64,000 bases of DNA from a bacterium (GCA_028824015.1 JAPPFC010000030.1:98-64097), one strand, 5' to 3'; shown: positions 16,900 through 64,000, counted from the stretch's first letter. Program-made: numbers and translations. The notes: a model not told the origin generated them from the sequence alone.

Positions 16900-18000
16900 C
16901 TACCCCTCGGGTCTGTCGTTCTCTTCCAACTCCACCACCAGTTCGTGTCGGCGACGAGAGGTGGAGATCAAGGACTGCACGATGGCGGCCACCGGCAGGG
17001 CCAGCACCGCCCCCAAAGCCCCCAGGAGGGATCCGCCGGCGATCACCGCTCCCACCGAGACCGCGGGATGGATGGCCATGGTGCGGGAGGTGACCCGGGG
17101 AGCGATCACCAGGTTCTCGATCTGCTGATAGGCAATGATGAGCACCAGCACCCACAGCGCGGTGATCGGGTTTTCGAGGAGGGCGATTACCACCGGCAGC
17201 GCTCCTCCGATGTAGGTTCCGATCACCGGCATGAACTGGGACAGCACTCCCACCCAGATTCCCAGGGCCACCGGGTAGGGCACCGACAGGAAGGCAAGCG
17301 CCGTGGCCGTGACCGCCGCCGACACCACCGCCAGGATCAGTCGCGAATAGACGTACCCTCCGGTCTTCTCTATGGACACTTCCCAGATCCGGAGGAGCAG
17401 GCGCTGGCGGGGGCCCGGGAAGAGCGACAACACCAGACGGAGCATCTTGGGCGCCTCCGCCACCATGTAAAAGGCAAAGAGCAGAATGGTCACCCCCTGG
17501 AAGACGACGTTGGCCAGGGTGCTCCCCACCGCCAGCACTCCCCCGGCGACCTGGCTTCCGTACTTCTGCAGGAGCGATCCCAGGTCTTCCAGTTGGGAGC
17601 GGATCTGGACATCCAGCAGGTCGATGTCCATGAACCTTCCCAGCCAACTCTCTATGGTGGATAGATAGTCGGGTAGGTTGGCTGCGATGGCGGCGGTCTG
17701 GTTGATGAAGAGCGGCAGCAGGGAGGCCAGGAACAGGGCTGCCAGGACGAAAGCCGCCAGGAAGACCACCGCGGTTGCCCAGTGGCGGTTCCATCTCCTC
17801 TTCTCCAGCCAGTCCACCGCGGGACCGAGGGCCACCGCCAGGAAGAGTGCGATGAAGATCATCAGCAGGAGGGTGGCCAATTGCAGGATCACCCAGACCA
17901 CCGCCGCCACTCCCAGCAGGGTTGCACAGGCGGTGATCAGCCAACGATTTAGCCAGGGAGGAGGCTGGGCAGACGGGGTGGGTTTGTCTTCCAGCGCCAC
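16900..18000 (-). CDS. AI-2E family transporter (PerM/UPF0118)
   Basis: 366-aa polytopic membrane protein with the AI-2E pattern (FMPVIGTYIGGALPVVIAL..., LVIAPRV). Confidence 0.7.
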   Translation of the reverse strand: MALEDKPTPSAQPPPWLNRWLITACATLLGVAAVVWVILQLATLLLMIFIALFLAVALGPAVDWLEKRRWNRHWATAVVFLAAFVLAALFLASLLPLFINQTAAIAANLPDYLSTIESWLGRFMDIDLLDVQIRSQLEDLGSLLQKYGSQVAGGVLAVGSTLANVVFQGVTILLFAFYMVAEAPKMLRLVLSLFPGPRQRLLLRIWEVSIEKTGGYVYSRLILAVVSAAVTATALAFLSVPYPVALGIWVGVLSQFMPVIGTYIGGALPVVIALLENPITALWVLVLIIAYQQIENLVIAPRVTSRTMAIHPAVSVGAVIAGGSLLGALGAVLALPVAAIVQSLISTSRRRHELVVELEENDRPEG

Positions 18001-18083
18001 GGGACTCCAGTGTACCTTAAAAGGGGAAACCGGGGAGGGAGTGCTCCCGCCCCGGTCGTCCGGTTGAGTAGGTCCTGATCAGG

Positions 18084-18959
18084 TCAGGGCTTCTCTATGG
18101 GCACCCCCACGGTGTTGCCGTACTCGGTCCAGGACCCGTCGTAGTTGCGGACGTTCTCGAACCCCAGAAGATGGGTGAGCACGAACCAGGTGTGGCTGGA
18201 TCTCTCCCCGATCCGGCAGTAGGTGATCACTTCGTCGCCCGATGACAGGCCGATCTCGCTCTCGTAGATGGATCTCAGTTCATCGGCGTCCTTGAAGGTG
18301 CCGTCGTCGTTTGCGGCCCGCTTCCAGGGCACGTTGTTGGCCGCCGGGATATGCCCGCCTCGGGTGGCTCCCTCGTTCGGGTATCCGGGCATGTGGAGAC
18401 GCTCCCCGCGGAACTCCTCGGGAGACCGGACGTCCACCAGCGGGTTCCCGGCCTTGGAGTGGTCGAGAACCAGGGGAAGGAAGGCGCGGATTTGCGAGTC
18501 GTCCCGGTCGACCTCCGGGTAGTCGGCGGCGTCACGCTGGGTGGGGGCGGTGGTGAGCGGACGGCCCTCCTCTTCCCACTTCATGCGTCCGCCGTCCAGG
18601 ATCCGCACGTCGCGGTGACCGAACAGCGAGACCACCCACAGGGCGTAAGTGGCCCACCAGTTGAAATTGTCTCCGTAGAAGACCAGGGTGGAGTCAGGAC
18701 TGATTCCCTTGCTGCCCATCACCGCTGAAAAACCGTCGCTACCCAGGTAGTCCCTGATCAAGGGGTGGTTGAGATCAAGATGCCAGTCGAGGTTGACCGC
18801 TCCGGGGATGTGCCCGGTGTCGTAGAGGAGGGGATCCTCGTTCGACTCCACCGGTATGACGTTCGGGTCATCCAGATGCTCGGCCAACCACTCGGTGGTG
18901 ACCAGCATTCCGGGGTGGGCGTAGGCGGAAAACTTGGGGTTGGGTGCGGTGTCAGACAT
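18084..18959 (-). CDS. sseA: Thiosulfate/3-mercaptopyruvate sulfurtransferase (tandem rhodanese)
   Basis: Two rhodanese domains. Active-site CRIGERSS with the catalytic Cys. Confidence 0.85.
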
Positions 18960-50020: not shown

Positions 50021-50167
50021 TCTTGAGGGAACAGCATCGGTTCTCTCGGCATCCACAAGCAGATAGTGCGAAAACAGTTGGTTCCGGAATTCGAAAGGAG
50101 CGTCATTCTTCACACTCCAACCCCAATAAACACGCTTTGGACCATTGGAAAGAGAAAGGAATGGCTA

Positions 50168-52228
50168 ATGAAGAGACTTTTAGTGTTGCTCTTGGTGGTC
50201 GGTCTGGTGGCGGCCGCATGCGGCGACGACGAGGCGGAAGTCACCCCGGACGAGATCGGCGACGAAGTTACAACCACCCCAGAGGAGTCGGACGAGGCCG
50301 AGCCGACCCCGACCGCGCCTGAGGAAGAGGCCGAAGTCACTTTGGATGAGTTGAATGTGGCTTACTTTTTGGAGTGGCCCACGGCCAACCAGGTTGCTCA
50401 GGCGGAGAAGACCTATGACCAGGCGCTCGGCGTGACCGTGAACTGGATACCGTTTGCCAGCGGAGGTGACATGGCACAGGCCATGGAGGCCGGAGACATC
50501 GACATCTCCTATTCCCAGGGGTTGACGCCCTTTGCCAACTTCGTGACGGGAGGTGCGGACCTGGTTCTTGTCGGGGTGGCAGTGGCTTACGCGGATGCCG
50601 ATAACTGCGTGGCCCATCCTGACTACGGCGTCACCAAGGAAAACGCCGCAGAGACCCTGGCCGGCCAGAGCATCTACACGCCGCTGGGGAACGTCACTCA
50701 TTTCAAGCTTTTGAAGATGTTGGAGCATCTGGGGGTTGAACTTGACAGTGTCGAGTTGATCCAGTCCGAGGGTGGACCGGCGGCGGTAGCCGCGCTTGAC
50801 ACCGGCAACGTGGCCATGGCGTGCGCGTTCGGCGGTGCCGTCAACGCCATGATCGCCAACGGCGGCAACCTGGTGATGACCGGTACGGAGCAGGAAGCCA
50901 TCGGGATCCGGGTGTTCGACATCATCTCGACAACCGGCACCTTCGCCGCTGAACATCCCGACGTCATAACTGCGTTCCTGCAGGTGACCGAGGACGCCAA
51001 CCGTGCTTACAACGATGACCGGGAACCGTTCATCGACACCATCGCAGGTGCGGCTGGTATGGACCGCGCTTCGACCATCGCTCTGCTGGACGCGTTCAGC
51101 TTCCCCGAAAAGGACGCGCAGCTTTCGGATGCGTGGCTCGGGGGAACCGTGCAGTCTGTGATGAAGGAGCAGATGGACTTCTTCGTGGAACAGGGCGAGA
51201 TCGACTCGGCCCTCGCCGACTACAGCCAGTTCGTGGACACCAGCTTCCTCGAAGGGGTCACGGCCAGAGAGGTCGCGATGACCGATGCCACGCCCGAGAT
51301 GACCTTGGATGAGTTGAATGTGGCTTACTTTTTGGAGTGGCCCACGGCCAACCAGGTTGCTCAGGCGGAGAAGACCTATGACCAGGCGCTCGGCGTGACC
51401 GTGAACTGGATACCGTTTGCCAGCGGAGGTGACATGGCACAGGCCATGGAGGCCGGAGACATCGACATCTCCTATTCCCAGGGGTTGACGCCCTTTGCCA
51501 ACTTCGTGACGGGAGGTGCGGACCTGGTTCTTGTCGGGGTGGCAGTGGCTTACGCGGATGCCGATAACTGCGTGGCCCATCCTGACTACGGCGTCACCAA
51601 GGAAAACGCCGCAGAGACCCTGGCCGGCCAGAGCATCTACACGCCGCTGGGGAACGTCACTCATTTCAAGCTTTTGAAGATGTTGGAGCATCTGGGGGTT
51701 GAACTTGACAGTGTCGAGTTGATCCAGTCCGAGGGTGGACCGGCGGCGGTAGCCGCGCTTGACACCGGCAACGTGGCCATGGCGTGCGCGTTCGGCGGTG
51801 CCGTCAACGCCATGATCGCCAACGGCGGCAACCTGGTGATGACCGGTACGGAGCAGGAAGCCATCGGGATCCGGGTGTTCGACATCATCTCGACAACCGG
51901 CACCTTCGCCGCTGAACATCCCGACGTCATAACTGCGTTCCTGCAGGTGACCGAGGACGCCAACCGTGCTTACAACGATGACCGGGAACCGTTCATCGAC
52001 ACCATCGCAGGTGCGGCTGGTATGGACCGCGCTTCGACCATCGCTCTGCTGGACGCGTTCAGCTTCCCCGAAAAGGACGCGCAGCTTTCGGATGCGTGGC
52101 TCGGGGGAACCGTGCAGTCTGTGATGAAGGAGCAGATGGACTTCTTCGTGGAACAGGGCGAGATCGACTCGGCCCTCGCCGACTACAGCCAGTTCGTGGA
52201 CACCAGCTTCCTCGAAGGCGTGGACTAG
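50168..52228 (+). CDS. NitT/TauT-family (NMT1/ThiY/SsuA-like) ABC substrate-binding lipoprotein containing an in-frame tandem duplication of the whole binding domain
   Basis: Lipoprotein signal MKRLLVLLLVVGLVAAACG. The mature region 50342-51254 is identical to 51305-52217 (offset 963 bp = 321 codons). Confidence 0.7.
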   Translation: MKRLLVLLLVVGLVAAACGDDEAEVTPDEIGDEVTTTPEESDEAEPTPTAPEEEAEVTLDELNVAYFLEWPTANQVAQAEKTYDQALGVTVNWIPFASGGDMAQAMEAGDIDISYSQGLTPFANFVTGGADLVLVGVAVAYADADNCVAHPDYGVTKENAAETLAGQSIYTPLGNVTHFKLLKMLEHLGVELDSVELIQSEGGPAAVAALDTGNVAMACAFGGAVNAMIANGGNLVMTGTEQEAIGIRVFDIISTTGTFAAEHPDVITAFLQVTEDANRAYNDDREPFIDTIAGAAGMDRASTIALLDAFSFPEKDAQLSDAWLGGTVQSVMKEQMDFFVEQGEIDSALADYSQFVDTSFLEGVTAREVAMTDATPEMTLDELNVAYFLEWPTANQVAQAEKTYDQALGVTVNWIPFASGGDMAQAMEAGDIDISYSQGLTPFANFVTGGADLVLVGVAVAYADADNCVAHPDYGVTKENAAETLAGQSIYTPLGNVTHFKLLKMLEHLGVELDSVELIQSEGGPAAVAALDTGNVAMACAFGGAVNAMIANGGNLVMTGTEQEAIGIRVFDIISTTGTFAAEHPDVITAFLQVTEDANRAYNDDREPFIDTIAGAAGMDRASTIALLDAFSFPEKDAQLSDAWLGGTVQSVMKEQMDFFVEQGEIDSALADYSQFVDTSFLEGVD
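50342..52217 (+). repeat. Near-perfect direct tandem repeat: 915 bp at offset 963 bp
   Basis: The 100-aa antisense ORFs 50698-51000 and 51661-51963 are identical. The 579-aa antisense ORF contains the same ~200-aa block twice. Direct comparison of 50342.. and 51305.. agrees. Confidence 0.85.
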
Positions 52229-55960: not shown

Positions 55961-56246
55961 CGATCGGCACCCAACCCGCAGCCTTGGTCTTGGAGGTTGT
56001 TTTCGGCTGGGCCGCATCCTGCAACTTCCCATCCGACCCCAAGAGGAGCCGCTTCCACGATCTCCCTCGGGTCACCCCCAAGGGTGCCTACGCACGGGGT
56101 TAGAAAGCAGCAAGTCCAGAGACAACGGGGTTGCCCGGCTTGTCTTTCGGCTGTTAATGTGGGCCGAGATGCTTGAGGTTCTTGCCGCTGCGGCGCTGTT
56201 GGCGGGCGGTTGGTTCCAGCGTTATAGCCCTTGAGGCATTTCGTTC

Positions 56247-56840
56247 TTGGGTCAGTTCGGCCCGACTTTTGCTACTAGTCGGGGTGTCCGGCGCTTCTCT
56301 CACAGCGGCCTGTACGCGTTGGGTGTGTTGGTGTCTTCAACGCTGTTCTTACTGGGGGTCTCGGCTGCGGGGGTGTGGTTCAAGGAGATGGCGGGCCGCC
56401 GGACCTCGGTAGCTGTTGCATTGGCGCTGGCTGGACTGCTGTTGCTCTTGGACGGGATGAGGTTGTGGGGCGGGCGTTCTACTTCTTTCGGGCCGAAGCG
56501 GCAGACTCCTTACGACTGGCGGTTGAGAGGGCGGGTGGGTGTTGTCGCCTGGGGTGTCGACACGGGTTTGCCTGTTTCGACGGTGAGAGCCACGCCGTTG
56601 CCGGTGCTCGGTGTGATCCTTGCTGCTACTGGTCATTCGCTCTGGTTTTACGGACTGTTCTATGGGTTCGGTTTGACGTTGGGTGTGCTGGCCGGGTTGC
56701 CGTGGGCCCGCTCGTTCGTCCGGATTGATTGGGCGATGGCGGAACTGCAACGCAGGCATCGTAGGATCAACCCGGTTCTACTGGTCGTTCCGAGTGGCCT
56801 GACGGTGGTTGCGTTGGTGTCAGCGTTAGTCCTTGGCTAA
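56247..56840 (+). CDS. Hypothetical membrane protein (4-5 TM)
   Basis: 197 aa, hydrophobic helices. First gene of the co-oriented cluster. Confidence 0.45.
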   Translation: MGQFGPTFATSRGVRRFSHSGLYALGVLVSSTLFLLGVSAAGVWFKEMAGRRTSVAVALALAGLLLLLDGMRLWGGRSTSFGPKRQTPYDWRLRGRVGVVAWGVDTGLPVSTVRATPLPVLGVILAATGHSLWFYGLFYGFGLTLGVLAGLPWARSFVRIDWAMAELQRRHRRINPVLLVVPSGLTVVALVSALVLG

Positions 56841-56872
56841 TAGTTGTAGCTACAACTTAGCTCACTAACATC

Positions 56873-57307
56873 ATGTCGAGTGTGAGCGACATGCGGCGTT
56901 ACACCCGACCACGCCCGGGCCTTTATGGATCGAGTGAGTTCCTCGAGTTTCTCGGACGGCCGCTGGCGCAACCCGCTCAGCGTGATCGAGGTGGGGCTGT
57001 TGAGTCCGGAGCGGAGGCAGGGCATGGTGTTCTGGAGTTGGGCGTCAGCGAATCAAGACCAGACAGTGGATTCGTGAACGTGAGGCTGGACAGCACCGGC
57101 CAAGTCGTGCGGGCCAGGTTCAGCGGCTTCATCCCGGGGTATCGGCTGGCACCCGGGGATGAGTTGTGCGTGGAACTCGTGGACGATGGGTGGCGGACCG
57201 TTCCCGAAGTGCGTCACACTATCAAGCACCGCGATCGCATTGAATTCTGGGGGGTTAACCGCCTGACCGGTGAGTTCCGGCTCCTAGCCGAGAATTATTA
57301 CGAGTGA
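56873..57307 (+). CDS. Hypothetical soluble protein
   Basis: 144 aa, no recognisable motifs. Confidence 0.4.
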   Translation: MSSVSDMRRYTRPRPGLYGSSEFLEFLGRPLAQPAQRDRGGAVESGAEAGHGVLELGVSESRPDSGFVNVRLDSTGQVVRARFSGFIPGYRLAPGDELCVELVDDGWRTVPEVRHTIKHRDRIEFWGVNRLTGEFRLLAENYYE

Positions 57308-57314
57308 TCAAGCC

Positions 57315-57926
57315 TTGAACCTGGAGTGGATGGGTGTTCCGGTGCTGGTGGTGGCCGCGTTGCTTCTCTTAAGCGGCCTGCCGAAGATCGCAGATCCCAG
57401 ACCCGTGGCCGGAACCATGGAGTGGCTGTACGATCAGGTATCGGCACGCTGGCGCGGTTCGGGCGGTTCCCCGGTGGATCTGTCTCGTCCGGGCCGGTTG
57501 CTGGGACTGGCGGAGGTGGGTGTGGCCGGTTGGGTGGTGCTGGGACCGTCGTGGGGGGCGGCGGTCGCTTTGACTCTGCTGGCCGCGGGGTTCGCGGCGG
57601 CGGGCCTTGTGGGCGCCTTGTCTGACGTGCAGGTGGCTTGTGCCTGTTTCGGCAGGCAGGGGCGACCGCTGGGTTACTTTCATGTCCTGCTGTTTCCGGT
57701 CTGGGTAGGAGCGGCGTGGTGCGTGGGTCGGGTCGAAGGGTTCGGAGGGTTGGATGAGCGTTTGCTGGCGTTGGGGCTGTGCTGTGTTGGTGTCTTGTGC
57801 GTGTACCTGGTGAGGATGTGGGCGGCGTTGATGCCGTTGGCTCAGCACCGGCGTCGGGCAGCGATGCGGGTGGGTACTGTGACGCGGGTCGCCCATGGAG
57901 AGGCAGAGTGGTTGTTGCCGCGTTGA
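57315..57926 (+). CDS. MauE/DoxX-like membrane protein
   Basis: 203 aa, 4-5 TM, with the N-terminal VAALLLLSGLPKIADP pattern of the MauE family. Confidence 0.5.
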   Translation: MNLEWMGVPVLVVAALLLLSGLPKIADPRPVAGTMEWLYDQVSARWRGSGGSPVDLSRPGRLLGLAEVGVAGWVVLGPSWGAAVALTLLAAGFAAAGLVGALSDVQVACACFGRQGRPLGYFHVLLFPVWVGAAWCVGRVEGFGGLDERLLALGLCCVGVLCVYLVRMWAALMPLAQHRRRAAMRVGTVTRVAHGEAEWLLPR

Positions 57927-58498
57927 TCGTCTCCATAGTGGCCCTGGTGGTGAGTGCTCTGTGCGCGCTGGCGGTGATGGAGTTGCTAGCAAGTCGGTCC
58001 CACGGCAGGACGGAGGTAGATGACTCTCTGATCGAAGAGTTCGAGGTGCCGGCGAGCGTGGCTGGCACCGCCGCCAGTTCCCACGGTCTGCCGGAACGGA
58101 TCGACCATCTGGACCGTCATCTGGCTCTGTTCCTGTCCCCCATGTGTGCTCACTGCGCGGCGATCGCCTCCTCCCTGGGCGGGATGGTGCCTGATGACTT
58201 GACGGTGGTGGTAACCGCTTCTGCTCCCGAACGTATGCGTGTCTGGTCCCGGGATCGGGGCTTGTCGACTGACGACGTGGTCTTTGACGACGACATGTCC
58301 ATCGTGGGAAGCCTCAAGGTGGCGTCCAGCCCTACGGTGGTGGGCTTCGGCGCGGGCCGGGTGGTCTTTGCGGCCGGCATCGGAGGTAAGGCCGCGTTGG
58401 AGAAGTTGTTGGAGCAATGCTCTTCTGGGTTCTCCGAGGACATCTCTGATCTCTTGGGGCCAACGTCCGGGCAGGAACCCGGCGGCTCCCCGGGGTGA
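57908..58498 (+). CDS. Membrane-anchored thioredoxin-fold thiol:disulfide oxidoreductase (MauD/TlpA-like, CAHC active site)
   Basis: GTG start overlapping the MauE stop by 19 nt. N-terminal TM anchor, then LFLSPMCAHCAAI (CxxC). Confidence 0.55.
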   Translation: MVVAALIVSIVALVVSALCALAVMELLASRSHGRTEVDDSLIEEFEVPASVAGTAASSHGLPERIDHLDRHLALFLSPMCAHCAAIASSLGGMVPDDLTVVVTASAPERMRVWSRDRGLSTDDVVFDDDMSIVGSLKVASSPTVVGFGAGRVVFAAGIGGKAALEKLLEQCSSGFSEDISDLLGPTSGQEPGGSPG

Positions 58499-61400
58499 TT
58501 GCTTCGGCGGGTCCTCACGGTCGCGGCCAGGCGGGTCTCTGCGGGCGGCTGGCAGTGATATTCGTGACGGTGTTGCTCCTGATCACCGCGTTGGGACCGC
58601 TGGCGGCGGCTCAGGATGGAACGGGATCGGGTTCGGGTGTGTTTGGGGATGTGGGTCCGGGGCCGCATTGGGCTGCGGTTGAGGCGTTGGCGTCGTTGGG
58701 GGTGTTCGAGGGTACCGAGTGTGGTGAGGGGTTCTGTCCTGACGACCCGGTGCAGCGTTGGGTGATGGCGGTGTGGTTGGTGCGGGTGCTGGACCTGGCT
58801 TTGCCGGCGGTCGATGAGCCGCGGTTCGTCGATGTTGAGGCGTCGCAGTGGTGGTGGCGTTATGTGGAGGCGTTGGCGGAGGCTGGGGTGACGCGGGGTT
58901 GTGCCGAGGAGCCGGCGCGGTTCTGTCCGGACGGTTCGGTGTCTCGGTCGGAGATGGCGTCGTTTCTGGTGCGGGCGTTCGGGCTGGAGCCGGCGTTGGA
59001 GAGCGCGGGGTTTGTGGATGTGCCGGTGGGTGGTGCGAGTTGGCTTGATATCGAGGCTTTGGCTGCGAGTGGGGTGACTTCTGGTTGCGATGCGGAGGGG
59101 CCTCGGTTCTGTCCCGATCAGCCCACCACCCGCGCTCAGATGGCAACGTTCCTGTATCGGGCCATGACTCTTGGTGCGGGTTTTGGTGTGTTTGGGGATG
59201 TGGGTCCGGGGCCGCATTGGGCTGCGGTTGAGGCTTTGGCGTCGTTGGGGGTGTTCGAGGGTACCGAGTGTGGTGAGGGCTTCTGTCCTGACAAGCCGGT
59301 GCAGCGTTGGGTGATGGCGGTGTGGTTGGTGCGGGTGCTGGACCTGGCTTTGCCGGCGGTCGATGAGCCGCGGTTCGTCGATGTTGAGGCGTCGCAGTGG
59401 TGGTGGCGTTATGTGGAGGCGTTGGCGGAGGCTGGGGTGACGCGGGGTTGTGCCGAGGAGCCGGCGCGGTTCTGTCCGGACGGTTCGGTGTCTCGGTCGG
59501 AGATGGCGTCGTTTCTGGTGCGGGCGTTCGGGCTGGAGCCGGCGTTGGAGAGCGCGGGGTTTGTGGATGTGCCGGTGGGTGGTGCGAGTTGGCTTGATAT
59601 CGAGGCTTTGGCTGCGAGTGGGGTGACTTCTGGTTGCGATGCGGAGGGGCCTCGGTTCTGTCCCGATCAGCCCACCACCCGCGCTCAGATGGCGACATTC
59701 ATCAAAAGGGCCCACCCTGCCCTGGTGGCGTGTCCCAACGACATGCGGGAATCCGACCCCGAGGACGACACCAGCGGAGGTGGAGGCGGCGCCGGTGTCG
59801 GTGTCGGTGGAGGCGGCGGTGGTAGCGGTGGAGGCGGCGGTGGTAGCGGTGGAGGTGGAGGTGGCGGTGGACGTAGAACCCCAACCCCCGTTCCGACTCC
59901 GCAAGTTCCCGGAACGCCCCAGAACGTGTCGGCGGTGGGAGGGGACGAGTCGGTTGCCGTGGAGTGGTCGCCGCCGACCGATGACGGGGGGTCCCCGGTG
60001 ACCGGCTACCTGATCCGCTGGAAGCGGGCAACGCGAGCGACGTACAGCGATTCGAGACTGGCTGGTGCTGCGGCCCGCAGCATCGAGATCACCGGTCTGC
60101 TGCCCGCCACGCAGTATGACGTGTCCGTGGCTGCTGTCAGCGATGTCGGGGAGGGTGGCGCCGCAATCGTGCGGGCCACTACCCTGGATCCGCCTCCCGG
60201 CGCTCCCGGCGCCCCTCAGAACGTGTCGGCGGTGGGAGGGGACGAGTCGGTTGCCGTGGAGTGGTCGCCGCCGACCGATGACGGGGGGTCCCCGGTGACC
60301 GGCTACCTGATCCGCTGGAAGCGGGCAACGCGAGCGACGTACAGCGATTCGAGACTGGCTGGCGCTGCGGCCCGGAGCATCGAGATCACCGGTCTGCTGC
60401 CCGGTACGCAGTATGACGTTTCCGTGGCTGCAGTCAACGCATTGGGCACCGGCAGGTTCGAGGTCGGGCAGGCCACTACATTGGGCACCCCGCCCGATCC
60501 TCCCGGCCCGCCCCTCTCTGTGAACTTGGTTCGCGGTGTCGAGAGTCTCACCGTCACATGGTCGCCGCCCGCCGACGACGGTGGTACCCCGATCACGGGC
60601 TATGCCATGAGGTGGAGGAAGGAGAGTCAGCCGACGTCCTGGCTGCAGCGGTCGGTCGGATCCAACGAGCGCAGCACCGTTCTCGCCGACTTGGAGCGGG
60701 GGGAAGAATATCGAGTCGAGGTCTGGGCTGTCAACGATGCGGGAAATGGAACCAAGGTCGTCGAAATGGCCGAGCCGCTTGAGCTACCGGGCACGCCTCT
60801 GAGTGTGGCAGTGGTCGGCGGCATGGGAAGCCTGACCGTCTCGTGGTCACCGCCAACCGAAGACGGCGGATCGCCGATCACCGGATACCAGGTCCGTTGG
60901 AAACGGACCAACGAGTCGAGCTTCACCGACTCGACGAATCTGGGATCGGCAGTCCGTAGCTACCAAATCGTGAATCTGGACCCGGGCGTCGACTACCAGG
61001 TTGCGGTGGCAGCCGGAAACGTCGTCGGTCTCGGACCGGATTCCCAGGAGCAGTCCAAGGTGCCCGACGTGCCGCAAGCTCCGCTACTGCAGGAACCGGT
61101 GGTGGGTGAGGACAGTTTCATGCTGGAGTGGGCGCAACAAGAGGATGACACGGTGCCAATAACCGGGTACGAACTGCGGTGGAAACTGGCAGGGGCCACC
61201 AGTTACACCAACGAGCGACAGCTCTCGGCCGCCGACCGCAGTGTGGAGGTGCGCAACCTGACCGCCGGCACCGACTACGACGTGGCCCTCAACGCCACAT
61301 CCGCCAATGGCGATGGGCGGATCTCCGAAACGGAGGCGCAACTTATCGACGGACCGGCGCCGCCGGGTCCGCCCCGGGAACTGTCCGCGGTGCTCAGCCT

Positions 61401-63432
61401 CGACGGTTCCACAGTGTCCTGGTCGGCTCCCTACAGCGACGGCGGCTCGGCCATCACCAAGTACAAACTCAGTTGGTCCGGTCACACCAGCGGAGAAGCA
61501 GAGGTCACCGGTCTGAGCTACGAATCCGACGCGTTCAGTCTGAGCACCACCCACATGTTCCGCGTCTCCGCAGTCAATGCCGAGGGCGAAGGCACGCCAG
61601 CCCTGGCTGCCGCCACCATCGCCGGTCTCCCGCCGCCGCCCCAGGATCTGAGACTCGTGCCCGGCGACGGGAAGCTAACGGTCGCCTGGCTTTTGGTAAG
61701 GGGACCCTCGATCCCGCTGATCAGCGCCGGGCGGGTGACCGCTTACCGCGTGCAGTGGAAAAGTGGGGACCAGGACTACAGCGAGGACCGGCAGGCCGAG
61801 GTGCCGTCTCTTGACGACCTGCGTCACGACGATGTCGCGGTGCGCCATCAGCACGAGATCCCGTCGCTGACCAACGGAACGGTCTACACGGTACGGGTCA
61901 TGGCAGTGAGCGAGACGGGGGTTAGCCCGGGCGCCGAGGCGTCGGGCGCTCCTGCCGCGCCCAACCCCAACGCACCCACCGACCTGACTCTCTCTGTAGA
62001 TGTCGAAGAAGTGGATGTGCAATGGTCCGCACCCTCGGTGTCGAGTGGCGTCACCGTGGACGGTTACCGGGTCCAGTGGCGTCTCGACGGCGAGGAATAC
62101 GGTACGGAGGACTGGACCGAGGTGTCCGACACCTCGGCCACCGTCGAAGACCTGACTCCGGGTGAGTTGTACTTCATCAGGGTGACAGCGCTGCTCTCGG
62201 ACGACTCGGGCGGGTGGGCCGAGGCCCGTATCGCGCCCTTGGCCCTGCCCGGCGAGCCACAAGACCTCACCGCAGTCGGCAGCGGCGGTCTGGCGACCGT
62301 ATCGTGGTCCGCTCCTGATCCGGTCGACGGGGGTCCGGTGCTCGCCTACCGAGTGAGGTGGAGGGCCTACATCAAACAGGAGATGTACACAACACAGACC
62401 CAAATCGTTGCCGACCTACCCAACCGGGTGGCGACAAGAGTCGGAGTGGAGGCGGTCAACTCACTGGGAATAGGTCCATTGGTATGGAAGTCGGTAACGC
62501 CCCCGGCGCCGACCCGTTCCATCCGGGACCTGCAAGTCCGGTCAGGCGACGGCGTCCTGGACATCTCATGGCGGGCACCAACAGGTCAACCGAGCCGCGA
62601 CTACACGGTGCAGTGGCGGGCTTCCGACGAAACCTATGATGACTCCCGGTCGGCTCAAACCACGGACCGCCAGTACGAGATCACCAGCCTGAGGAGCGAT
62701 ATCCGGCATTTCGTGCGGGTCCGGGCGGAGAAGGGCGCCGACCTCGGGCAGTGGACCGAGATCTCGGCTCAGCCGGAGGGCTTCACGGATCGGCCGGACG
62801 CGCCGACCGGGATCGCCACCGCGGGCTCCGACGAGCGGCTGCTGGTCTCCTGGTCGGCCCCGTCCAACATCAACGGCTCCACGATCGGCGGGTACCTCGT
62901 GGAGTGGCGAACGGCCGGAGGAGAATACAACTCAGACGACCAGGCGGAAACGGATGCGTCGACGCTCAACCACCAGATCAGCGCGCTGACGAACGGCACT
63001 ATCTATGAGGTGCGGGTCCGGGCGCTGACCAGCGACGACCAACCCGGCGCGGCCATAACGGCGAGCGCAGTGCCGCTAGGTACTCCCGGAGCGCCCACCG
63101 AAACCGCTGTCGATGCCCGCCACGACATGCTGCTGGTGTCGTGGCTGCCGCCCACCAGCGACGGTGGAGCGCCCATCGACCACTACAGAATCTCCTGGAG
63201 GAGCGAGACGCAGAGCTTCCCCTCCAATGACTGCTCCGACCGGGTAACCTATGTCAGGTGGCCGAATGCCGTCATCACATTCGAAGGGTTCACACACCTC
63301 ACCGGTCGCTTCTTCGATTCCGTCAACCTTGTTCAGGGCCGCGAGTACTTCGTGCGGATCCAAGCCGAGACCTCCGAAGGGCGCGGTCCGGCAGCCGAGG
63401 TCTCAGCAAGAGTGCGCTTTGCTCCCCGCTAA
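58495..63432 (+). CDS. Giant secreted cell-surface protein: signal peptide, 2 x (3 SLH domains), Gly-rich linker, ~12 fibronectin type III domains
   Basis: GTG start overlapping the upstream stop (GTGA). Signal LLLITALGPLAAAQD. SLH-like units (FGDVGPGPHWAAVEALASLGVFEGTECGEGFCPD..., FVDVEASQWWWRYVEALAEAGVTRGCAEEPARFCPD..., FVDVPVGGASWLDIEALAASGVTSGCDAEGPRFCPD...). Linker GGGGGAGVGVGGGGGGSGGGGGGSGGGGGGGG. Repeated FN3 modules (GSPVTGYLIRWKR...YDVSVAAV). Confidence 0.8.
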   Translation: MIASAGPHGRGQAGLCGRLAVIFVTVLLLITALGPLAAAQDGTGSGSGVFGDVGPGPHWAAVEALASLGVFEGTECGEGFCPDDPVQRWVMAVWLVRVLDLALPAVDEPRFVDVEASQWWWRYVEALAEAGVTRGCAEEPARFCPDGSVSRSEMASFLVRAFGLEPALESAGFVDVPVGGASWLDIEALAASGVTSGCDAEGPRFCPDQPTTRAQMATFLYRAMTLGAGFGVFGDVGPGPHWAAVEALASLGVFEGTECGEGFCPDKPVQRWVMAVWLVRVLDLALPAVDEPRFVDVEASQWWWRYVEALAEAGVTRGCAEEPARFCPDGSVSRSEMASFLVRAFGLEPALESAGFVDVPVGGASWLDIEALAASGVTSGCDAEGPRFCPDQPTTRAQMATFIKRAHPALVACPNDMRESDPEDDTSGGGGGAGVGVGGGGGGSGGGGGGSGGGGGGGGRRTPTPVPTPQVPGTPQNVSAVGGDESVAVEWSPPTDDGGSPVTGYLIRWKRATRATYSDSRLAGAAARSIEITGLLPATQYDVSVAAVSDVGEGGAAIVRATTLDPPPGAPGAPQNVSAVGGDESVAVEWSPPTDDGGSPVTGYLIRWKRATRATYSDSRLAGAAARSIEITGLLPGTQYDVSVAAVNALGTGRFEVGQATTLGTPPDPPGPPLSVNLVRGVESLTVTWSPPADDGGTPITGYAMRWRKESQPTSWLQRSVGSNERSTVLADLERGEEYRVEVWAVNDAGNGTKVVEMAEPLELPGTPLSVAVVGGMGSLTVSWSPPTEDGGSPITGYQVRWKRTNESSFTDSTNLGSAVRSYQIVNLDPGVDYQVAVAAGNVVGLGPDSQEQSKVPDVPQAPLLQEPVVGEDSFMLEWAQQEDDTVPITGYELRWKLAGATSYTNERQLSAADRSVEVRNLTAGTDYDVALNATSANGDGRISETEAQLIDGPAPPGPPRELSAVLSLDGSTVSWSAPYSDGGSAITKYKLSWSGHTSGEAEVTGLSYESDAFSLSTTHMFRVSAVNAEGEGTPALAAATIAGLPPPPQDLRLVPGDGKLTVAWLLVRGPSIPLISAGRVTAYRVQWKSGDQDYSEDRQAEVPSLDDLRHDDVAVRHQHEIPSLTNGTVYTVRVMAVSETGVSPGAEASGAPAAPNPNAPTDLTLSVDVEEVDVQWSAPSVSSGVTVDGYRVQWRLDGEEYGTEDWTEVSDTSATVEDLTPGELYFIRVTALLSDDSGGWAEARIAPLALPGEPQDLTAVGSGGLATVSWSAPDPVDGGPVLAYRVRWRAYIKQEMYTTQTQIVADLPNRVATRVGVEAVNSLGIGPLVWKSVTPPAPTRSIRDLQVRSGDGVLDISWRAPTGQPSRDYTVQWRASDETYDDSRSAQTTDRQYEITSLRSDIRHFVRVRAEKGADLGQWTEISAQPEGFTDRPDAPTGIATAGSDERLLVSWSAPSNINGSTIGGYLVEWRTAGGEYNSDDQAETDASTLNHQISALTNGTIYEVRVRALTSDDQPGAAITASAVPLGTPGAPTETAVDARHDMLLVSWLPPTSDGGAPIDHYRISWRSETQSFPSNDCSDRVTYVRWPNAVITFEGFTHLTGRFFDSVNLVQGREYFVRIQAETSEGRGPAAEVSARVRFAPR
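58636..59733 (+). repeat. 549-bp near-identical tandem repeat (a triple-SLH block duplicated). A further 297-bp near-identical repeat lies at 59917-60510 (first two FN3 modules).
   Basis: Identical 66-aa antisense ORFs at 58848-59048 and 59397-59597. Only a few substitutions between copies (e.g. CPDDPV vs CPDKPV). Confidence 0.8.
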
Positions 63433-63459
63433 GCGGATGAACCCACCCCACTTCAATAT

Positions 63460-63879
63460 ATGAAGGCCGCTGCGGGGAAGCGATCCGGCCGGGTTCCTCA
63501 GGCTTTGCCTTCAGCCGCGGAGCAGAGTCGTGAGGCCTTGGCCTTCCCGCAGGGCAGTCCTCAAAGCCGCCGACAATTCCTGCGCATCGCGTCCAGGGCA
63601 GCCTTGTTAGTTCTGGCCGCCGGGGCGCGGGTCGTTCTCGACGCGTCGCCGGCGAACGCAAGAGAAGACCTGGACGTGGGATGCTGCGTACTCGCCCAGT
63701 ATCCGTCCCAATGGTGTCCTTTCATGTGCCAGGACTCCGGTCTTGTCCTGCGGTGCTGGACATGCAACTCAGGCCAATGCAAGTGCTGCGAGTGCACTGC
63801 CTTCGCGAGCGACGAGGAGGAGCCCAGTTGCTTCACCGGTTCTGCGTTCGCCTGCTCCTACAGGTCGGGTTGCTGCTGA
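63460..63879 (+). CDS. Tat-signal, cysteine-rich small secreted protein (14 Cys in the ~70-aa mature region)
   Basis: Twin-arginine motif SRRQFLRIAS, then an h-region and an ANA cleavage site. Mature part DVGCCVLAQYPSQWCPFMCQDSGLVLRCWTCNSGQCKCCECTAFASDEEEPSCFTGSAFACSYRSGCC. Unusually long (~38 aa) n-region. Confidence 0.6.
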   Translation: MKAAAGKRSGRVPQALPSAAEQSREALAFPQGSPQSRRQFLRIASRAALLVLAAGARVVLDASPANAREDLDVGCCVLAQYPSQWCPFMCQDSGLVLRCWTCNSGQCKCCECTAFASDEEEPSCFTGSAFACSYRSGCC

Positions 63880-64000
63880 GGATCGCGGTCCCCACCGCCG
63901 GTTTCAACCACCAGCAGCGACACTTACGAAAGTAGCATCGGATGGTCGCCCGACGGAAACGCATCCTATTTGTGAGTAGAACAGATGGTGACGCTGAACT

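Follow-up and report, generated by a model that had tools for sequence, protein, structure and literature searches.

A conserved gene cassette of Acidimicrobiia pairing a MauE-type membrane protein and a predicted thioredoxin-fold protein with a candidate Tat-exported, cysteine-rich mini-protein

In the mau cluster of P. denitrificans PD1222 (plasmid 1, mauF-B-E-D-A; locus L019 in our comparison), MauE is directly followed by a membrane-anchored CxxC thioredoxin-like protein, MauD, and a small Cys-rich subunit with a twin-arginine leader, MauA, is co-encoded. MauE proteins can replace DsbB in E. coli, where they act as an oxidase; MauE has been proposed to be a generalist DsbB-like oxidase in thousands of species without MauA, and its route to be the second most common one in bacterial oxidative folding (Gonzalez et al., bioRxiv 10.64898/2026.03.05.709764). 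The traits reported for active MauE are a CxC motif followed by FG, defined experimentally in two MauE proteins, a conserved Lys in the first transmembrane segment (TM1) and a Glu in TM2, and a thioredoxin-fold partner or fusion is frequent. In the same preprint, two proteins, from Calditrichota and Thermodesulfobacteriota, were tested in E. coli, their natural client was not named, and Actinomycetota are not mentioned in its text.

Dedicated oxidoreductase pairs have also been described beside Cys-rich secreted products of other kinds. The sublancin operon of B. subtilis SPbeta (sunA-sunT-bdbA-sunS-bdbB), carried on a mobile element, encodes a secreted Cys-containing peptide together with the thioredoxin-like BdbA, the membrane oxidase BdbB and, separately, a membrane immunity protein (PMC6391423). 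This peptide, with two disulfides and an S-glycosyl group, leaves the cell through an ABC transporter/protease. In Streptomyces, candidate RiPP families found with decRiPPter have mauE, one of them also mauD, beside precursors with at least eight Cys and without the remaining mau genes (PMC7794033). With mauE/D-mauA, sublancin bdbA/B and the Streptomyces MauE candidates already described, the locus reported here overturns no concept. A sequence-only reading of this DNA had stated that no system with this composition was known, which, given these precedents and the generalist MauE proteins, was overstated.

The window analysed here was a stretch of 64,000 nucleotides of a bacterial genome assembly (GCA_028824015.1, JAPPFC010000030.1:98-64097). 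Reading of its ORFs between positions 56247 and 63879 revealed six genes on the + strand, g1 to g6, in the same orientation and densely packed. Direct reading of the sequence placed the start of g4 (57908) before the end of g3 (57926), and g4 and g5 overlap at 58495/58498 within GTGA, so that the packing and the overlaps were found exactly as had been claimed. These start/stop overlaps indicated co-translation. A scan of the + strand for promoters and terminators gave nothing informative. The same gene families were seen again at more than 15 independent loci and, since g6 is in addition under purifying selection (see below), the cluster is not a chance set of ORFs. Its conservation extends over uncultured Acidimicrobiia of marine and sponge origin, the group to which the window belongs; the host is a monoderm actinobacterium, whereas the mau host is a methylotrophic proteobacterium. 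As in the mau cluster, a MauE-type gene (g3) is directly followed by one for an anchored CxxC protein (g4), and a small Cys-rich protein with a twin-arginine leader (g6) is encoded with them.

The membrane protein g3 (57315..57926, +; alternative start 57330) matched the Pfam MauE model PF07291 with 34.4 bits, above the gathering cut-off of 27 (E 3.2e-8), and precomputed annotation lists the same match for the homologue at locus L005 and for the identical protein of three assemblies. Among nine members of the g3 family, K24, E67 and C109-A-C111-F112-G113 were invariant, and hhalign aligned the family with P. denitrificans MauE (E 0.005) through the Glu and the CxCF. The motif Cys109-Ala-Cys111-Phe-Gly, read in the sequence at 57639..57653 (+), is the proposed redox-active site. 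The proposal that g3 belongs to the MauE family was thus borne out by the Pfam threshold and by the CxC-FG, Lys and Glu features of active MauE (Gonzalez et al., bioRxiv 10.64898/2026.03.05.709764) and, judged by profile and motif, g3 is a true MauE. A tblastn search of plasmids with g3 gave zero matches. The pairing of g3 with g4 likewise recalls the thioredoxin-fold partners of other MauE proteins; unlike the tested ones, this MauE is embedded beside a specific candidate client.

The 196 aa protein g4 (57908..58498, +) begins with a transmembrane segment that covers at least residues 1-19 by hydropathy, and hydropathy and the AlphaFold model give a hydrophobic helix over residues 1-32. Its catalytic domain would lie outside the cell, to judge from the flanking charges and the structural neighbours. 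The active-site motif Cys80-Ala-His-Cys83 was read at 58145..58156 (+), and SPxCxxC and SSSP, the cis-Pro motif, were invariant across 30 homologues. The model (pLDDT 89.8, pTM 0.77) gave 123 Foldseek matches in the PDB at E<=1e-3; of the listed best 50, almost all were of the TlpA, ResA, CcmG, DsbE/F, SdbA or FetE type, with a Foldseek probability of 1.00, target-normalised TM-scores of 0.55-0.63 and 10-19% identity. The N-terminal anchor, the CxxC and the cis-Pro are shared with the TlpA/ResA-type family. Profiles were far less informative: neither Pfam nor NCBIfam, including the MauD model TIGR02661, gave a match to g4 at E<=1, thioredoxin Pfam models matched 2 of the 30 homologues at E about 0.09, below threshold, and a PDB profile search found thioredoxins only at E 0.7-1.2. 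Against P. denitrificans MauD, hhalign gave a weak alignment of the g4 family (E 0.003, probability 11%, 128 columns) that includes EFELP and the CxxC, and a phmmer search with MauD matched only the g4 homologue of L027/L028 (E 0.0018). Hence, the earlier description of g4 as a membrane-anchored CxxC thioredoxin stands by fold, CxxC and cis-Pro, whereas its MauD-like label failed every thioredoxin and MauD HMM threshold. The structure model confidently predicts an anchored thioredoxin fold resembling TlpA, ResA and DsbE. Because these structural neighbours include both reductases (TlpA, ResA, CcmG) and oxidases, they do not fix the direction of electron flow at g4. In the TlpA/ResA family, several members are reductases that receive their electrons from CcdA/DsbD, which this locus lacks.

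The last gene, g6 (63460..63879, +), was called in none of the three deposited assemblies. Its family comprises about 28 members with a dN/dS of 0.21-0.36, and g6 is a real gene under purifying selection that all three annotations missed; the doubt that this Cys-rich ORF might not be conserved is thereby removed. The twin-arginine signal (63568..63660, +) reads R37-R38-Q-F-L-R, preceded by Ser, followed by the hydrophobic stretch AALLVLAAGA and by A65-N-A67, and agrees with the Tat pattern of an S/T-R-R-x-F-L-K-like motif, a hydrophobic stretch and A-x-A. The mature domain (63661..63876, +) follows, with 14 Cys in about 72 residues arranged as CC-x9-WCPxxC-x8-CWxC-x4-CxCCEC-x11-C-x7-C-x5-CC, so that both halves of the Tat-type, 14-Cys description were recovered. 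The RRxFLR residues R4, R5 and R9 are at least 90% conserved in 21 aligned members. Tat HMMs matched these 21 members weakly (PF10518 in 5, best E 0.0035; TIGR02811 in 7; TIGR01409 in 4), and none of the three matched the copy in the window. The closest homologue starts where the in-frame TTG 63538 falls, and nothing upstream of there is conserved, which makes TTG 63538 the likely true start; the leader would then probably measure about 41 aa, as is ordinary for Tat signals. The leader that had been called unusually long rests on ATG 63460 and is probably a start-codon artefact.

Leader length had also been offered as a hallmark of MauA-type precursors; g6 is unrelated to MauA. No relative of mature g6 was found by profile searches of Pfam, NCBIfam or the PDB, the light chain of methylamine dehydrogenase (MADH) was not among the PDB matches, and hhalign of the g6 family against P. 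denitrificans MauA aligned the RR motif alone (probability 0.3%). MauA or QhpC kinship of g6 was rejected, as Pfam, the PDB profile search and hhalign all gave no signal. These results speak against reading g6 as small subunit in a quinoprotein-like enzyme of a new kind, with a Trp/Cys-derived cross-link as in MauA (TTQ) or QhpC (CTQ) and with g5 or another protein as partner subunit. The parallel with the logic of mauE-mauD-mauA, the Tat leader and Cys richness of g6, and the conservation of W85 (at least 90% of the members) and W100 (all members) speak for it. The remaining machinery is missing: neither the window with the 4.6 kb that follow it nor any related locus yielded a homologue of MauA, MauB, MauG, MauJ or amicyanin, the window and the fetched loci having been searched by phmmer with P. 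denitrificans MauB, MauG, MauJ and amicyanin. The sequence-only reading, which saw no methylamine dehydrogenase large subunit or maturase in the window, was right in this, as no MauB or MauG homologue was detected. No modification-enzyme family, including radical-SAM or flavoprotein-type maturases, was recognised in g1-g6, in the 4.6 kb downstream of position 64000, where a search for such enzymes had been suggested, or in the scanned part of the flanking ORFs of relatives. Apart from disulfide formation, the scanned genes thus offer no recognisable tailoring step for a leader-core precursor of the kind that marks a RiPP cluster, although g1 or g2 might supply one. The available partner g5 has SLH and FN3 modules only, and we give the cofactor-enzyme reading hardly any credence.

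The cysteines of g6 themselves suggested disulfides. All 14 are kept in 19 of the 28 members, and C99 and C110 are missing only jointly, in five members, a pattern that points to a disulfide; in the predicted model, of low confidence, C99 faces C110 across a hairpin. Some members have 11 or 13 Cys, so that not all Cys are in intramolecular disulfides. Trp, Pro and Tyr are conserved and the aromatics (two Trp, Tyr, Phe/Trp) invariant, with no conserved His in the alignment. The AlphaFold model, built with 13 sequences (pLDDT 61), places a helix at 86-92, carrying C86xxxC90, and a hairpin at 95-102/107-114, whose strand 107-114 carries a CxC. Foldseek found nothing significant with this model, the best matches being the plant defensin-like protein PDFL2.1 and brazzein (E 3.9-6.6), and a defensin-like resemblance is a lead only. 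Compared with the precursors of the Streptomyces candidates, which are about 55-65 aa long with cores of about 35 aa and have no twin-arginine motif (PMC7794033), g6 showed no evident similarity.

So dense a set of thiols could instead bind metal. Under that reading, g6 would be an extracytoplasmic thiolate protein that binds or stores Cu, Zn, Cd or Hg, metallothionein-like or a metallochaperone, exported by Tat in a folded or metal-loaded state, with g4 and g3 keeping its Cys reduced and g1 acting as metal transporter. The CC, CxC and CxxC motifs among the 14 Cys and the odd Cys counts of some members would agree with this, and Tat is a route for cofactor-containing proteins. Additionally, the best structural neighbours of g4 include complexes of TlpA with ScoI and CoxB, both of them copper proteins, one g1 member has a weak DsbD_2 match (E 0.37), and the location on mobile elements described below would suit a resistance trait. 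The strict joint loss of C99 and C110 is, on the contrary, what a disulfide predicts, and invariant aromatics without a conserved His are atypical for metallothioneins. Nor is there a CcdA/DsbD-type electron importer, g1 having no Cys, or a metal-related Pfam match in any member, and the activity shown for MauE is that of an oxidase rather than a reductase (Gonzalez et al., bioRxiv 10.64898/2026.03.05.709764). A metal-binding role is therefore held to be improbable.

The 1645 aa protein g5 (58495..63432, +) is predicted to be secreted, with a signal peptide and a hydrophobic N-terminus visible in the translation. Pfam gave SLH (PF00395) with 99.4 bits in six stretches and fn3 (PF00041) with 446.7 bits in 12 stretches, and a Gly/Pro-Thr linker is also present. 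The claim that every SLH module carries a Cys pair proved correct for all six (76/81, 136/144, 198/206, 259/264, 319/327 and 381/389). A tandem duplication of 549 nt (58628..59725, +), 98% identical, doubles the SLH triplet in g5; in most of the homologues the Cys-paired SLH modules number only three. The homologues retain the SLH Cys pairs, and most retain a lone Cys just past the SLH region and further Cys in the C-terminal region. Further Cys-paired SLH proteins are encoded elsewhere in related genomes (L005, 16671-19850; L010, 15317-17929; L008, 229-3519).

The two genes that open the cluster had been left uninterpreted by the sequence-only reading. The 197 aa protein g1 (56247..56840, +) is a polytopic membrane protein with at least four hydrophobic segments by hydropathy and no Cys. 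Its invariant motifs are an MGQFGPT N-terminus, RQTPYxWR, WGxDTGLPxSTxR and HGLxYGxG, and it was found at every related locus. The 144 aa protein g2 (56873..57307, +; alternative start 56891) has no hydrophobic segment, signal peptide or transmembrane segment by hydropathy and is read as soluble; its conserved part is a C-terminal domain of about 90 aa, and among related loci it usually stands directly upstream of g6. No relative of g1 or g2 was found in Pfam, NCBIfam or the PDB, 5.8 billion proteins yielded only close relatives of g2, and a Pfam scan of all g1 members gave only noise, in which the DsbD_2 match mentioned above is included. Two candidate identities of g1 were rejected. A single-sequence hhalign with MauF covered 48 columns, reading RQ..W...G..GL..T..TPL (E 0.31), and vanished with a six-sequence MauF profile (probability 1%), and kinship to MauE/DoxX as a Cys-less paralogue received a probability of 0.2%. 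On these searches, g1 and g2 represent new families and core members of the cassette. Neither they nor g5 have a sequence counterpart in the sublancin operon, and no g1, g2 or SLH/FN3 partner is described for the Streptomyces families, which are likewise bioinformatic candidates (PMC7794033). The cassette differs from the mau cluster by these two extra core genes as well.

The families were inherited together. In the Acidimicrobiia relatives with enough flanking sequence, g1, g2, g4, g5 and g6 were present in 10 of 10 and g3 in 8 of 10, since L011 and L013 have no MauE gene within 10 kb. The order of the genes took at least three forms among these relatives, and the genes thus co-occurred despite shuffling, which is the outcome of the neighbourhood comparison proposed earlier. 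The compact order g2-g3-g4-g6-g1 was found at three further metagenome loci, without g5. The unit g5-g2-g6 duplicates together, and some loci carry several g6 paralogues or tandem g6 copies. The suggestion that the giant SLH/FN3 protein belongs to the system was hence upheld for the Acidimicrobiia relatives, where it co-duplicates, and not for the distant cassettes, from which it is absent; going by this distribution, g5 is a lineage-specific partner rather than part of a universal core.

The same distribution bears on whether g3 and g4 are merely a general disulfide system, or housekeeping pair, lying by coincidence beside Cys-containing envelope genes. That the same five or six families remain linked on mobile elements and in two orders of Acidimicrobiia, with their genes arranged in at least three ways, argues to the contrary, as do the start/stop overlaps and the failure to detect relatives of g1, g2, g4 and g6 outside the cassette context in 1.8-5.8 billion proteins. 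The generalist role proposed for MauE, the two clusters without MauE, the Cys-paired SLH proteins encoded elsewhere (L005, L010, L008) and the g4-g1 pair adjoining housekeeping genes in L008 can be quoted for the coincidence, which we nevertheless consider very improbable.

At several loci, genes of mobile elements lie beside the cassette. A tRNA-Leu, an integrase, an excisionase-like HTH gene and IS110 are found at locus L027, and transposases together with a TrwC relaxase at L025. In L005 the cluster is bordered by transposase or toxin-antitoxin genes, and in the source contig it is followed by an HTH_38 gene. These flanks, and above all the g5-less core on the mobile elements of L027 and L025, raise the possibility of a bacteriocin, in which g6 would be a secreted, disulfide-rich, defensin-like antimicrobial peptide, g3 and g4 its dedicated oxidative-folding enzymes, g1 the membrane immunity protein of the producer and g2 a holder in the cytoplasm, the link to g5 being secondary. 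The tandem copies and paralogues of g6 would suit such a role. So would the predicted CxxxC helix and CxC hairpin, although the defensin-like protein and brazzein matches are non-significant. Precedents exist in the BdbA/BdbB pair of the sublancin operon (PMC6391423) and in the defensin-like bacteriocins of Actinomycetota (PMC6989792). The sublancin oxidase is, however, of the DsbB type, in contrast to the MauE type found here, and its peptide leaves by a transporter, whereas g6 has a Tat signal (PMC6391423). Selection on g6 is purifying and not diversifying, and g1, whose polar motifs are invariant, ranks with the best conserved genes of the set, whereas immunity proteins typically evolve fast. 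The cassette contains no dedicated exporter or leader peptidase, to our knowledge Tat export is unusual for bacteriocins, and the co-duplication of g5-g2-g6 ties the cassette to the surface protein instead. For these reasons a bacteriocin function is regarded as rather unlikely.

The evidence tips slightly towards oxidative folding, that is, towards a self-contained cassette that makes, Tat-exports and oxidatively folds a Cys-rich mini-protein through a dedicated MauE-thioredoxin relay. The precursor g6 would be made with its twin-arginine signal and cross the membrane by the Tat pathway, and the cytoplasmic g2 probably escorts or holds it. Outside the membrane, the CxxC of g4 would introduce and shuffle the disulfides of g6 and, in the Acidimicrobiia lineage, probably also oxidise the Cys-paired SLH modules of g5. 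We infer that g3 re-oxidises g4 through its CxC-FG loop and passes the electrons to quinone, in a DsbA/DsbB-like relay. For the obligatory fifth component, g1, the candidate roles are receptor, immunity protein and processing enzyme. What the analysis shows, by computation, is the gene set, the families, the motifs, the co-inheritance and the selection on g6; the direction of redox flow and the clients of the relay are inferred, and the roles given to g1 and g2 are guesses. In Acidimicrobiia, where the cassette is joined to the giant SLH-anchored FN3 protein, the mini-protein would most likely act with this fibre at the cell surface, and in distant carriers the five-gene core travels alone, on mobile elements. 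Among the points against oxidative folding are the absence of MauE from 2 of the 10 clusters, the failed HMM thresholds of g4, the 11 or 13 Cys of some g6 members, the poor structure model of g6 and the missing Tat HMM match of the copy in the window. Moreover, MauA apart, proteins that fold only once exported do not usually take the Tat route. The idea of a re-purposed MauE/MauD module serving a new Cys-rich cargo accordingly survives as the best reading for the MauE/thioredoxin pair with its non-MADH cargo, with g4 TlpA/ResA-like by predicted structure and only weakly alignable to MauD.

Just short of evenly balanced is our confidence in a wider proposal, that the five genes g2-g3-g4-g6-g1 form a portable system, not described before, whose products are Tat-exported mini-proteins of a new, multiply disulfide-knotted class. 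Since the core is coupled to giant SLH-FN3 fibres in marine and sponge Acidimicrobiia, the surface layer may have in the mini-protein a disulfide-locked partner or cap. Alternatively, g6 may act as a defensin-like effector whose receptor or immunity protein is g1.

We know of no specific MauE client other than MauA. If the oxidative-folding reading is true, the cassette would provide a natural MauE client genetically linked to its enzyme and, on the wider proposal, the first natural set of dedicated MauE clients outside methylamine dehydrogenase. It would also reveal a new family of small, Cys-dense, Tat-targeted proteins overlooked by gene callers and, in g1 and g2, two further conserved families, making three (g1, g2 and g6) without relatives in Pfam, NCBIfam or the PDB. 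Furthermore, it would offer a handle on envelope biology or competition in uncultured Acidimicrobiia, including sponge symbionts.

The six genes of the candidate cassette were ORFs located on the + strand: g1 (56247-56840, 197 aa), g2 (56873-57307, 144 aa), g3 (57315-57926, 203 aa), g4 (57908-58498, 196 aa), g5 (58495-63432, 1645 aa) and g6 (63460-63879, 139 aa). The start-stop overlaps described for g3/g4 and g4/g5 in the sequence-only reading were both legible in the sequence, and the non-overlapping junctions had gaps of 7-32 nt. A TetR gene, divergently transcribed, was found upstream of g1. From g1 to the 5' part of g5 (56000-59500) the GC skew rose up to +0.37 and the AT skew fell down to -0.48, a strand skew far above that of the rest of the window which probably reflects the use of G/T-rich codons for Gly, Val, Ala and Trp. 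The contig, part of a MAG, exists in three deposited versions, namely JAPPJU010000055.1 of GCA_028820285.1 and two ENA scaffolds. Further upstream, a gene for an ABC substrate-binding protein (NMT1/OpuAC-like, 50066-52228) carried a 963-nt tandem duplication at 50331-51593, 99% identical over 300 nt aligned, which gives the protein two near-identical halves; the length of this gene was equal in the three assemblies.

The identification of g3 as a MauE-type protein was confirmed by Pfam (MauE, 34.4 bits against a cut-off of 27). An alignment of nine members of its family revealed that K24, E67 and the motif C109-A-C111-F-G were invariant. Two MauE proteins have been reported to substitute for DsbB in Escherichia coli, with the CxC being essential, and in MauE an FG follows the CxC and two conserved residues, a TM1 Lys and a TM2 Glu, lie close to a docked quinone (bioRxiv 10.64898/2026.03.05.709764). 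All of these features, the CxC, the FG, the TM1 Lys and the TM2 Glu, were present in g3.

The nature of g4 was less evident from sequence searches. The Pfam and NCBIfam scans gave no match, thioredoxin HMM matches among its homologues (n=30) were only sporadic with E about 0.1, and a profile search of the PDB ranked thioredoxins at the top, yet with E of only about 1. Nevertheless, an SPxCxxC motif and an SSSP(T/A) cis-Pro motif were invariant in the family after an N-terminal hydrophobic helix. The AlphaFold model obtained from the 30-sequence alignment was confident (pLDDT 89.8) and had 123 Foldseek matches in the PDB at E<=1e-3, the best of them being TlpA, ResA, CcmG, DsbE and DsbF of Mycobacterium tuberculosis, SdbA and FetE (probability 1.00). 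Since the invariant CxxC and cis-Pro motifs, the model and its structural neighbors agreed, g4 was assigned as a predicted membrane-anchored thioredoxin-fold CxxC protein. The earlier description of g4 as MauD-like thus held for its position and kind of protein, but g4 fell outside the MauD HMM family, with no NCBIfam match.

The cassette was also compared with the mauF-B-E-D-A-amicyanin-J-G region of Paracoccus denitrificans. The g3 family aligned with MauE through the Glu and the CxCF (E 0.005), and the g4 family aligned with MauD over 128 columns including EFELP and the CxxC, with E 0.003 but a probability of only 11%. MauA, with its long RR leader and 12 Cys, was the precedent behind the original comparison with g6; however, the g6 family had the RR motif alone in common with it, and no link to MauA chemistry was seen. 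Neither the window nor any of the fetched loci yielded a homologue of MauA, MauB, MauG, MauJ or amicyanin. That g6 could be a MauA-like cofactor subunit found no support and is scarcely credible. A suggestive single-sequence alignment of g1 with MauF vanished when g1 was compared with the MauF profile.

In the product of g6, the sequence SRRQFLR precedes a hydrophobic stretch and ANA, after which come 14 Cys. This gene was not called in any of the three annotations of the contig (positions 15553-15972 in the version L004), and an exact look-up therefore gave no match; NCBI calls instead a 57-aa ORF across it in a different frame (L004 15855-16028). The g6 homologues were likewise uncalled in L005 and in most of the genome loci, which leaves the family under-represented in protein databases. 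A word-indexed search retrieved one homologue, P0001, located downstream of the 3' end of a gene homologous to g5, and when 1.8 billion representatives were scanned in full with HMMER, 13 proteins were retrieved at E<=0.001; ten of these were small proteins of the g6 design. Uncalled copies were also found in the related loci, and g6 is a real gene. The ATG at 63460 places 36 residues ahead of the RR. The start of P0001 aligned with the in-frame TTG at 63538 and similarity began only there, so the leader is probably about 41 residues long instead of 67, and its unusual length probably stems from the choice of start codon.

The 14 Cys of the window copy were all present in 19 of 28 family members. 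W85, P87 and S133 were kept in at least 90% of the members, and W100, E111 and G137 were invariant. Pairwise dN/dS was 0.21-0.36, with dS near saturation. C99 and C110 were replaced jointly in five members and never singly, and a low-confidence model puts them on the facing strands (95-102 and 107-114) of a hairpin; a disulfide would be expected to give this pattern. The pairwise loss of Cys and the conservation of aromatic residues, together with the absence of an electron importer, argue against g6 being a metal-thiolate protein held reduced by a TlpA-like reductase, a reading that we consider improbable. Regarding the remaining two genes, g1 encodes a protein with no Cys and at least four hydrophobic segments and g2 a soluble protein; nothing similar to g1, g2 or the mature g6 was found in Pfam, NCBIfam or the PDB sequences.

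The g4 family comprised 56 members, none of them annotated. When one genome per species was scanned with this family, 11 loci were obtained, 10 of them labelled as Acidimicrobiia (Candidatus Spongiisociaceae and Candidatus Aldehydirespirator among them) and belonging to at least two orders. When the neighborhoods with sufficient flank (n=10) were analyzed by profile searches of six-frame ORFs, g1, g2, g4, g5 and g6 were found in all ten relatives and g3 in eight, with L011 and L013 lacking it within 10 kb. The order g1-g2-g3-g4-g5-g6 of the window was shared with L005, whereas L006, L009 and L010 had g5-g2-g6-g3-g4-g1, and L012, L014 and L015 had g3-g4-g2-g6-g5-g1. L007 and L011 each had a duplication of the whole g5-g2-g6 triad, and L018 carried a tandem g6 and two g5 ORFs followed by g2. 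In L006, L009, L010, L008 and L016, g3-g4-g1 or g4-g1 were kept together. This co-inheritance through rearrangements makes it very unlikely that g3 and g4 are a housekeeping Dsb pair merely adjacent to Cys genes. In L016 (9699-12003, one MAG), g3-g4-g1 was broken over several reading frames with no g2, g5 or g6 nearby, and this copy is either decaying or affected by assembly frameshifts.

A metagenome scan seeded with g1 detected distant copies at 38-44% identity, which were compact g2-g3-g4-g6-g1 cassettes. One of them, L027 (9-4333), was accompanied by a tRNA-Leu, a phage-type tyrosine integrase, an HTH_17 protein, an APH kinase and an IS110 transposase, and another, L025 (2614-10218), by IS110 and Mutator transposases and a TrwC relaxase; these mobile-element genes suggest that the core cassette moves horizontally. 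The mobile context, the paralogue copies and the precedent of sublancin (PMC6391423) would also fit g6 being a defensin-like bacteriocin and g1 its immunity protein, but the strong conservation of g1 and the purifying selection on g6 speak against this, and we regard it as possible although rather unlikely.

Since no g5 was found near the distant cassettes, the universal core consists of g1, g2, g3, g4 and g6. The giant SLH/FN3 gene, initially proposed as a member of the system, lies outside this core and is a partner specific to the marine/sponge lineage of the window. In Pfam, g5 had 6 SLH and 12 fn3 stretches, and every SLH module carried a Cys pair. Additionally, a lone Cys413 (59731-59733) was located right after the SLH region and Cys1580 (63232-63234) in the last FN3-like domain; in most homologues a Cys also directly follows the SLH region and the C-terminal region adds one to three more, and these residues may form long-range or intermolecular disulfides. 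Two tandem duplications were observed in g5, one at 58628-59725 (549-nt unit, 98% identical) that doubles the SLH triplet and another at 59879-60439 (297-nt unit, 92% identical) that duplicates one FN3 domain. L005 also has six SLH modules, against three with Cys pairs in most of the other homologues. The relatives encode other large Cys-paired SLH proteins near the cassette (L005 16671-19850, - strand; L010 15317-17929; L008 229-3519), with different passenger domains, such as LRR or beta-solenoid, so that Cys pairs in SLH modules appear to be common among these Acidimicrobiia as a general trait.

The 4.6 kb past the end of the window contained an HTH_38 gene, Tricorn/PD40 genes and, on the opposite strand, a gene for a Cys-rich repeat protein of 649 aa; a modification enzyme, as sought by the sequence-only reading, was not visible in this stretch. 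The 649-aa secreted protein (16966-18915, - strand, in the contig version L003; about 1.2-3.1 kb beyond the window end) has dozens of cysteines in many copies of an RCC1-like pattern, H/F-x-C-A-[IL]...T-[IV]-x-C-W-G, and would probably be another client for an extracytoplasmic disulfide system. The HTH_38 (IS30-like) gene sits between g6 and this gene.

The best-supported model is a DsbB/DsbA-like relay from g3 to g4 that is reserved for, or inherited together with, a Cys-knotted client exported through Tat. The MauE protein g3 would oxidize the thioredoxin-fold protein g4, and g6 would be the client of this pair. The simplest reading of g2, because it is cytoplasmic and usually directly upstream of g6, is that of a putative escort for the g6 precursor, and g1 is an obligatory membrane component. 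In the lineage of the window, the Cys-paired SLH protein g5 would probably be a second client and functional partner.

The logic of placing the genes for an oxidoreductase pair next to that for a Cys-rich secreted product is already known, as in sunA-bdbA-bdbB (PMC6391423), in Streptomyces MauE candidates adjoining precursors with at least 8 Cys (PMC7794033) and in mauE/D beside mauA, and MauE has recently been proposed as a generalist oxidase (bioRxiv 10.64898/2026.03.05.709764). What is new is the particular cassette, with its Tat-targeted 14-Cys client family, two further families without known relatives and its mobility, and, in one lineage, its coupling to giant SLH-FN3 proteins.
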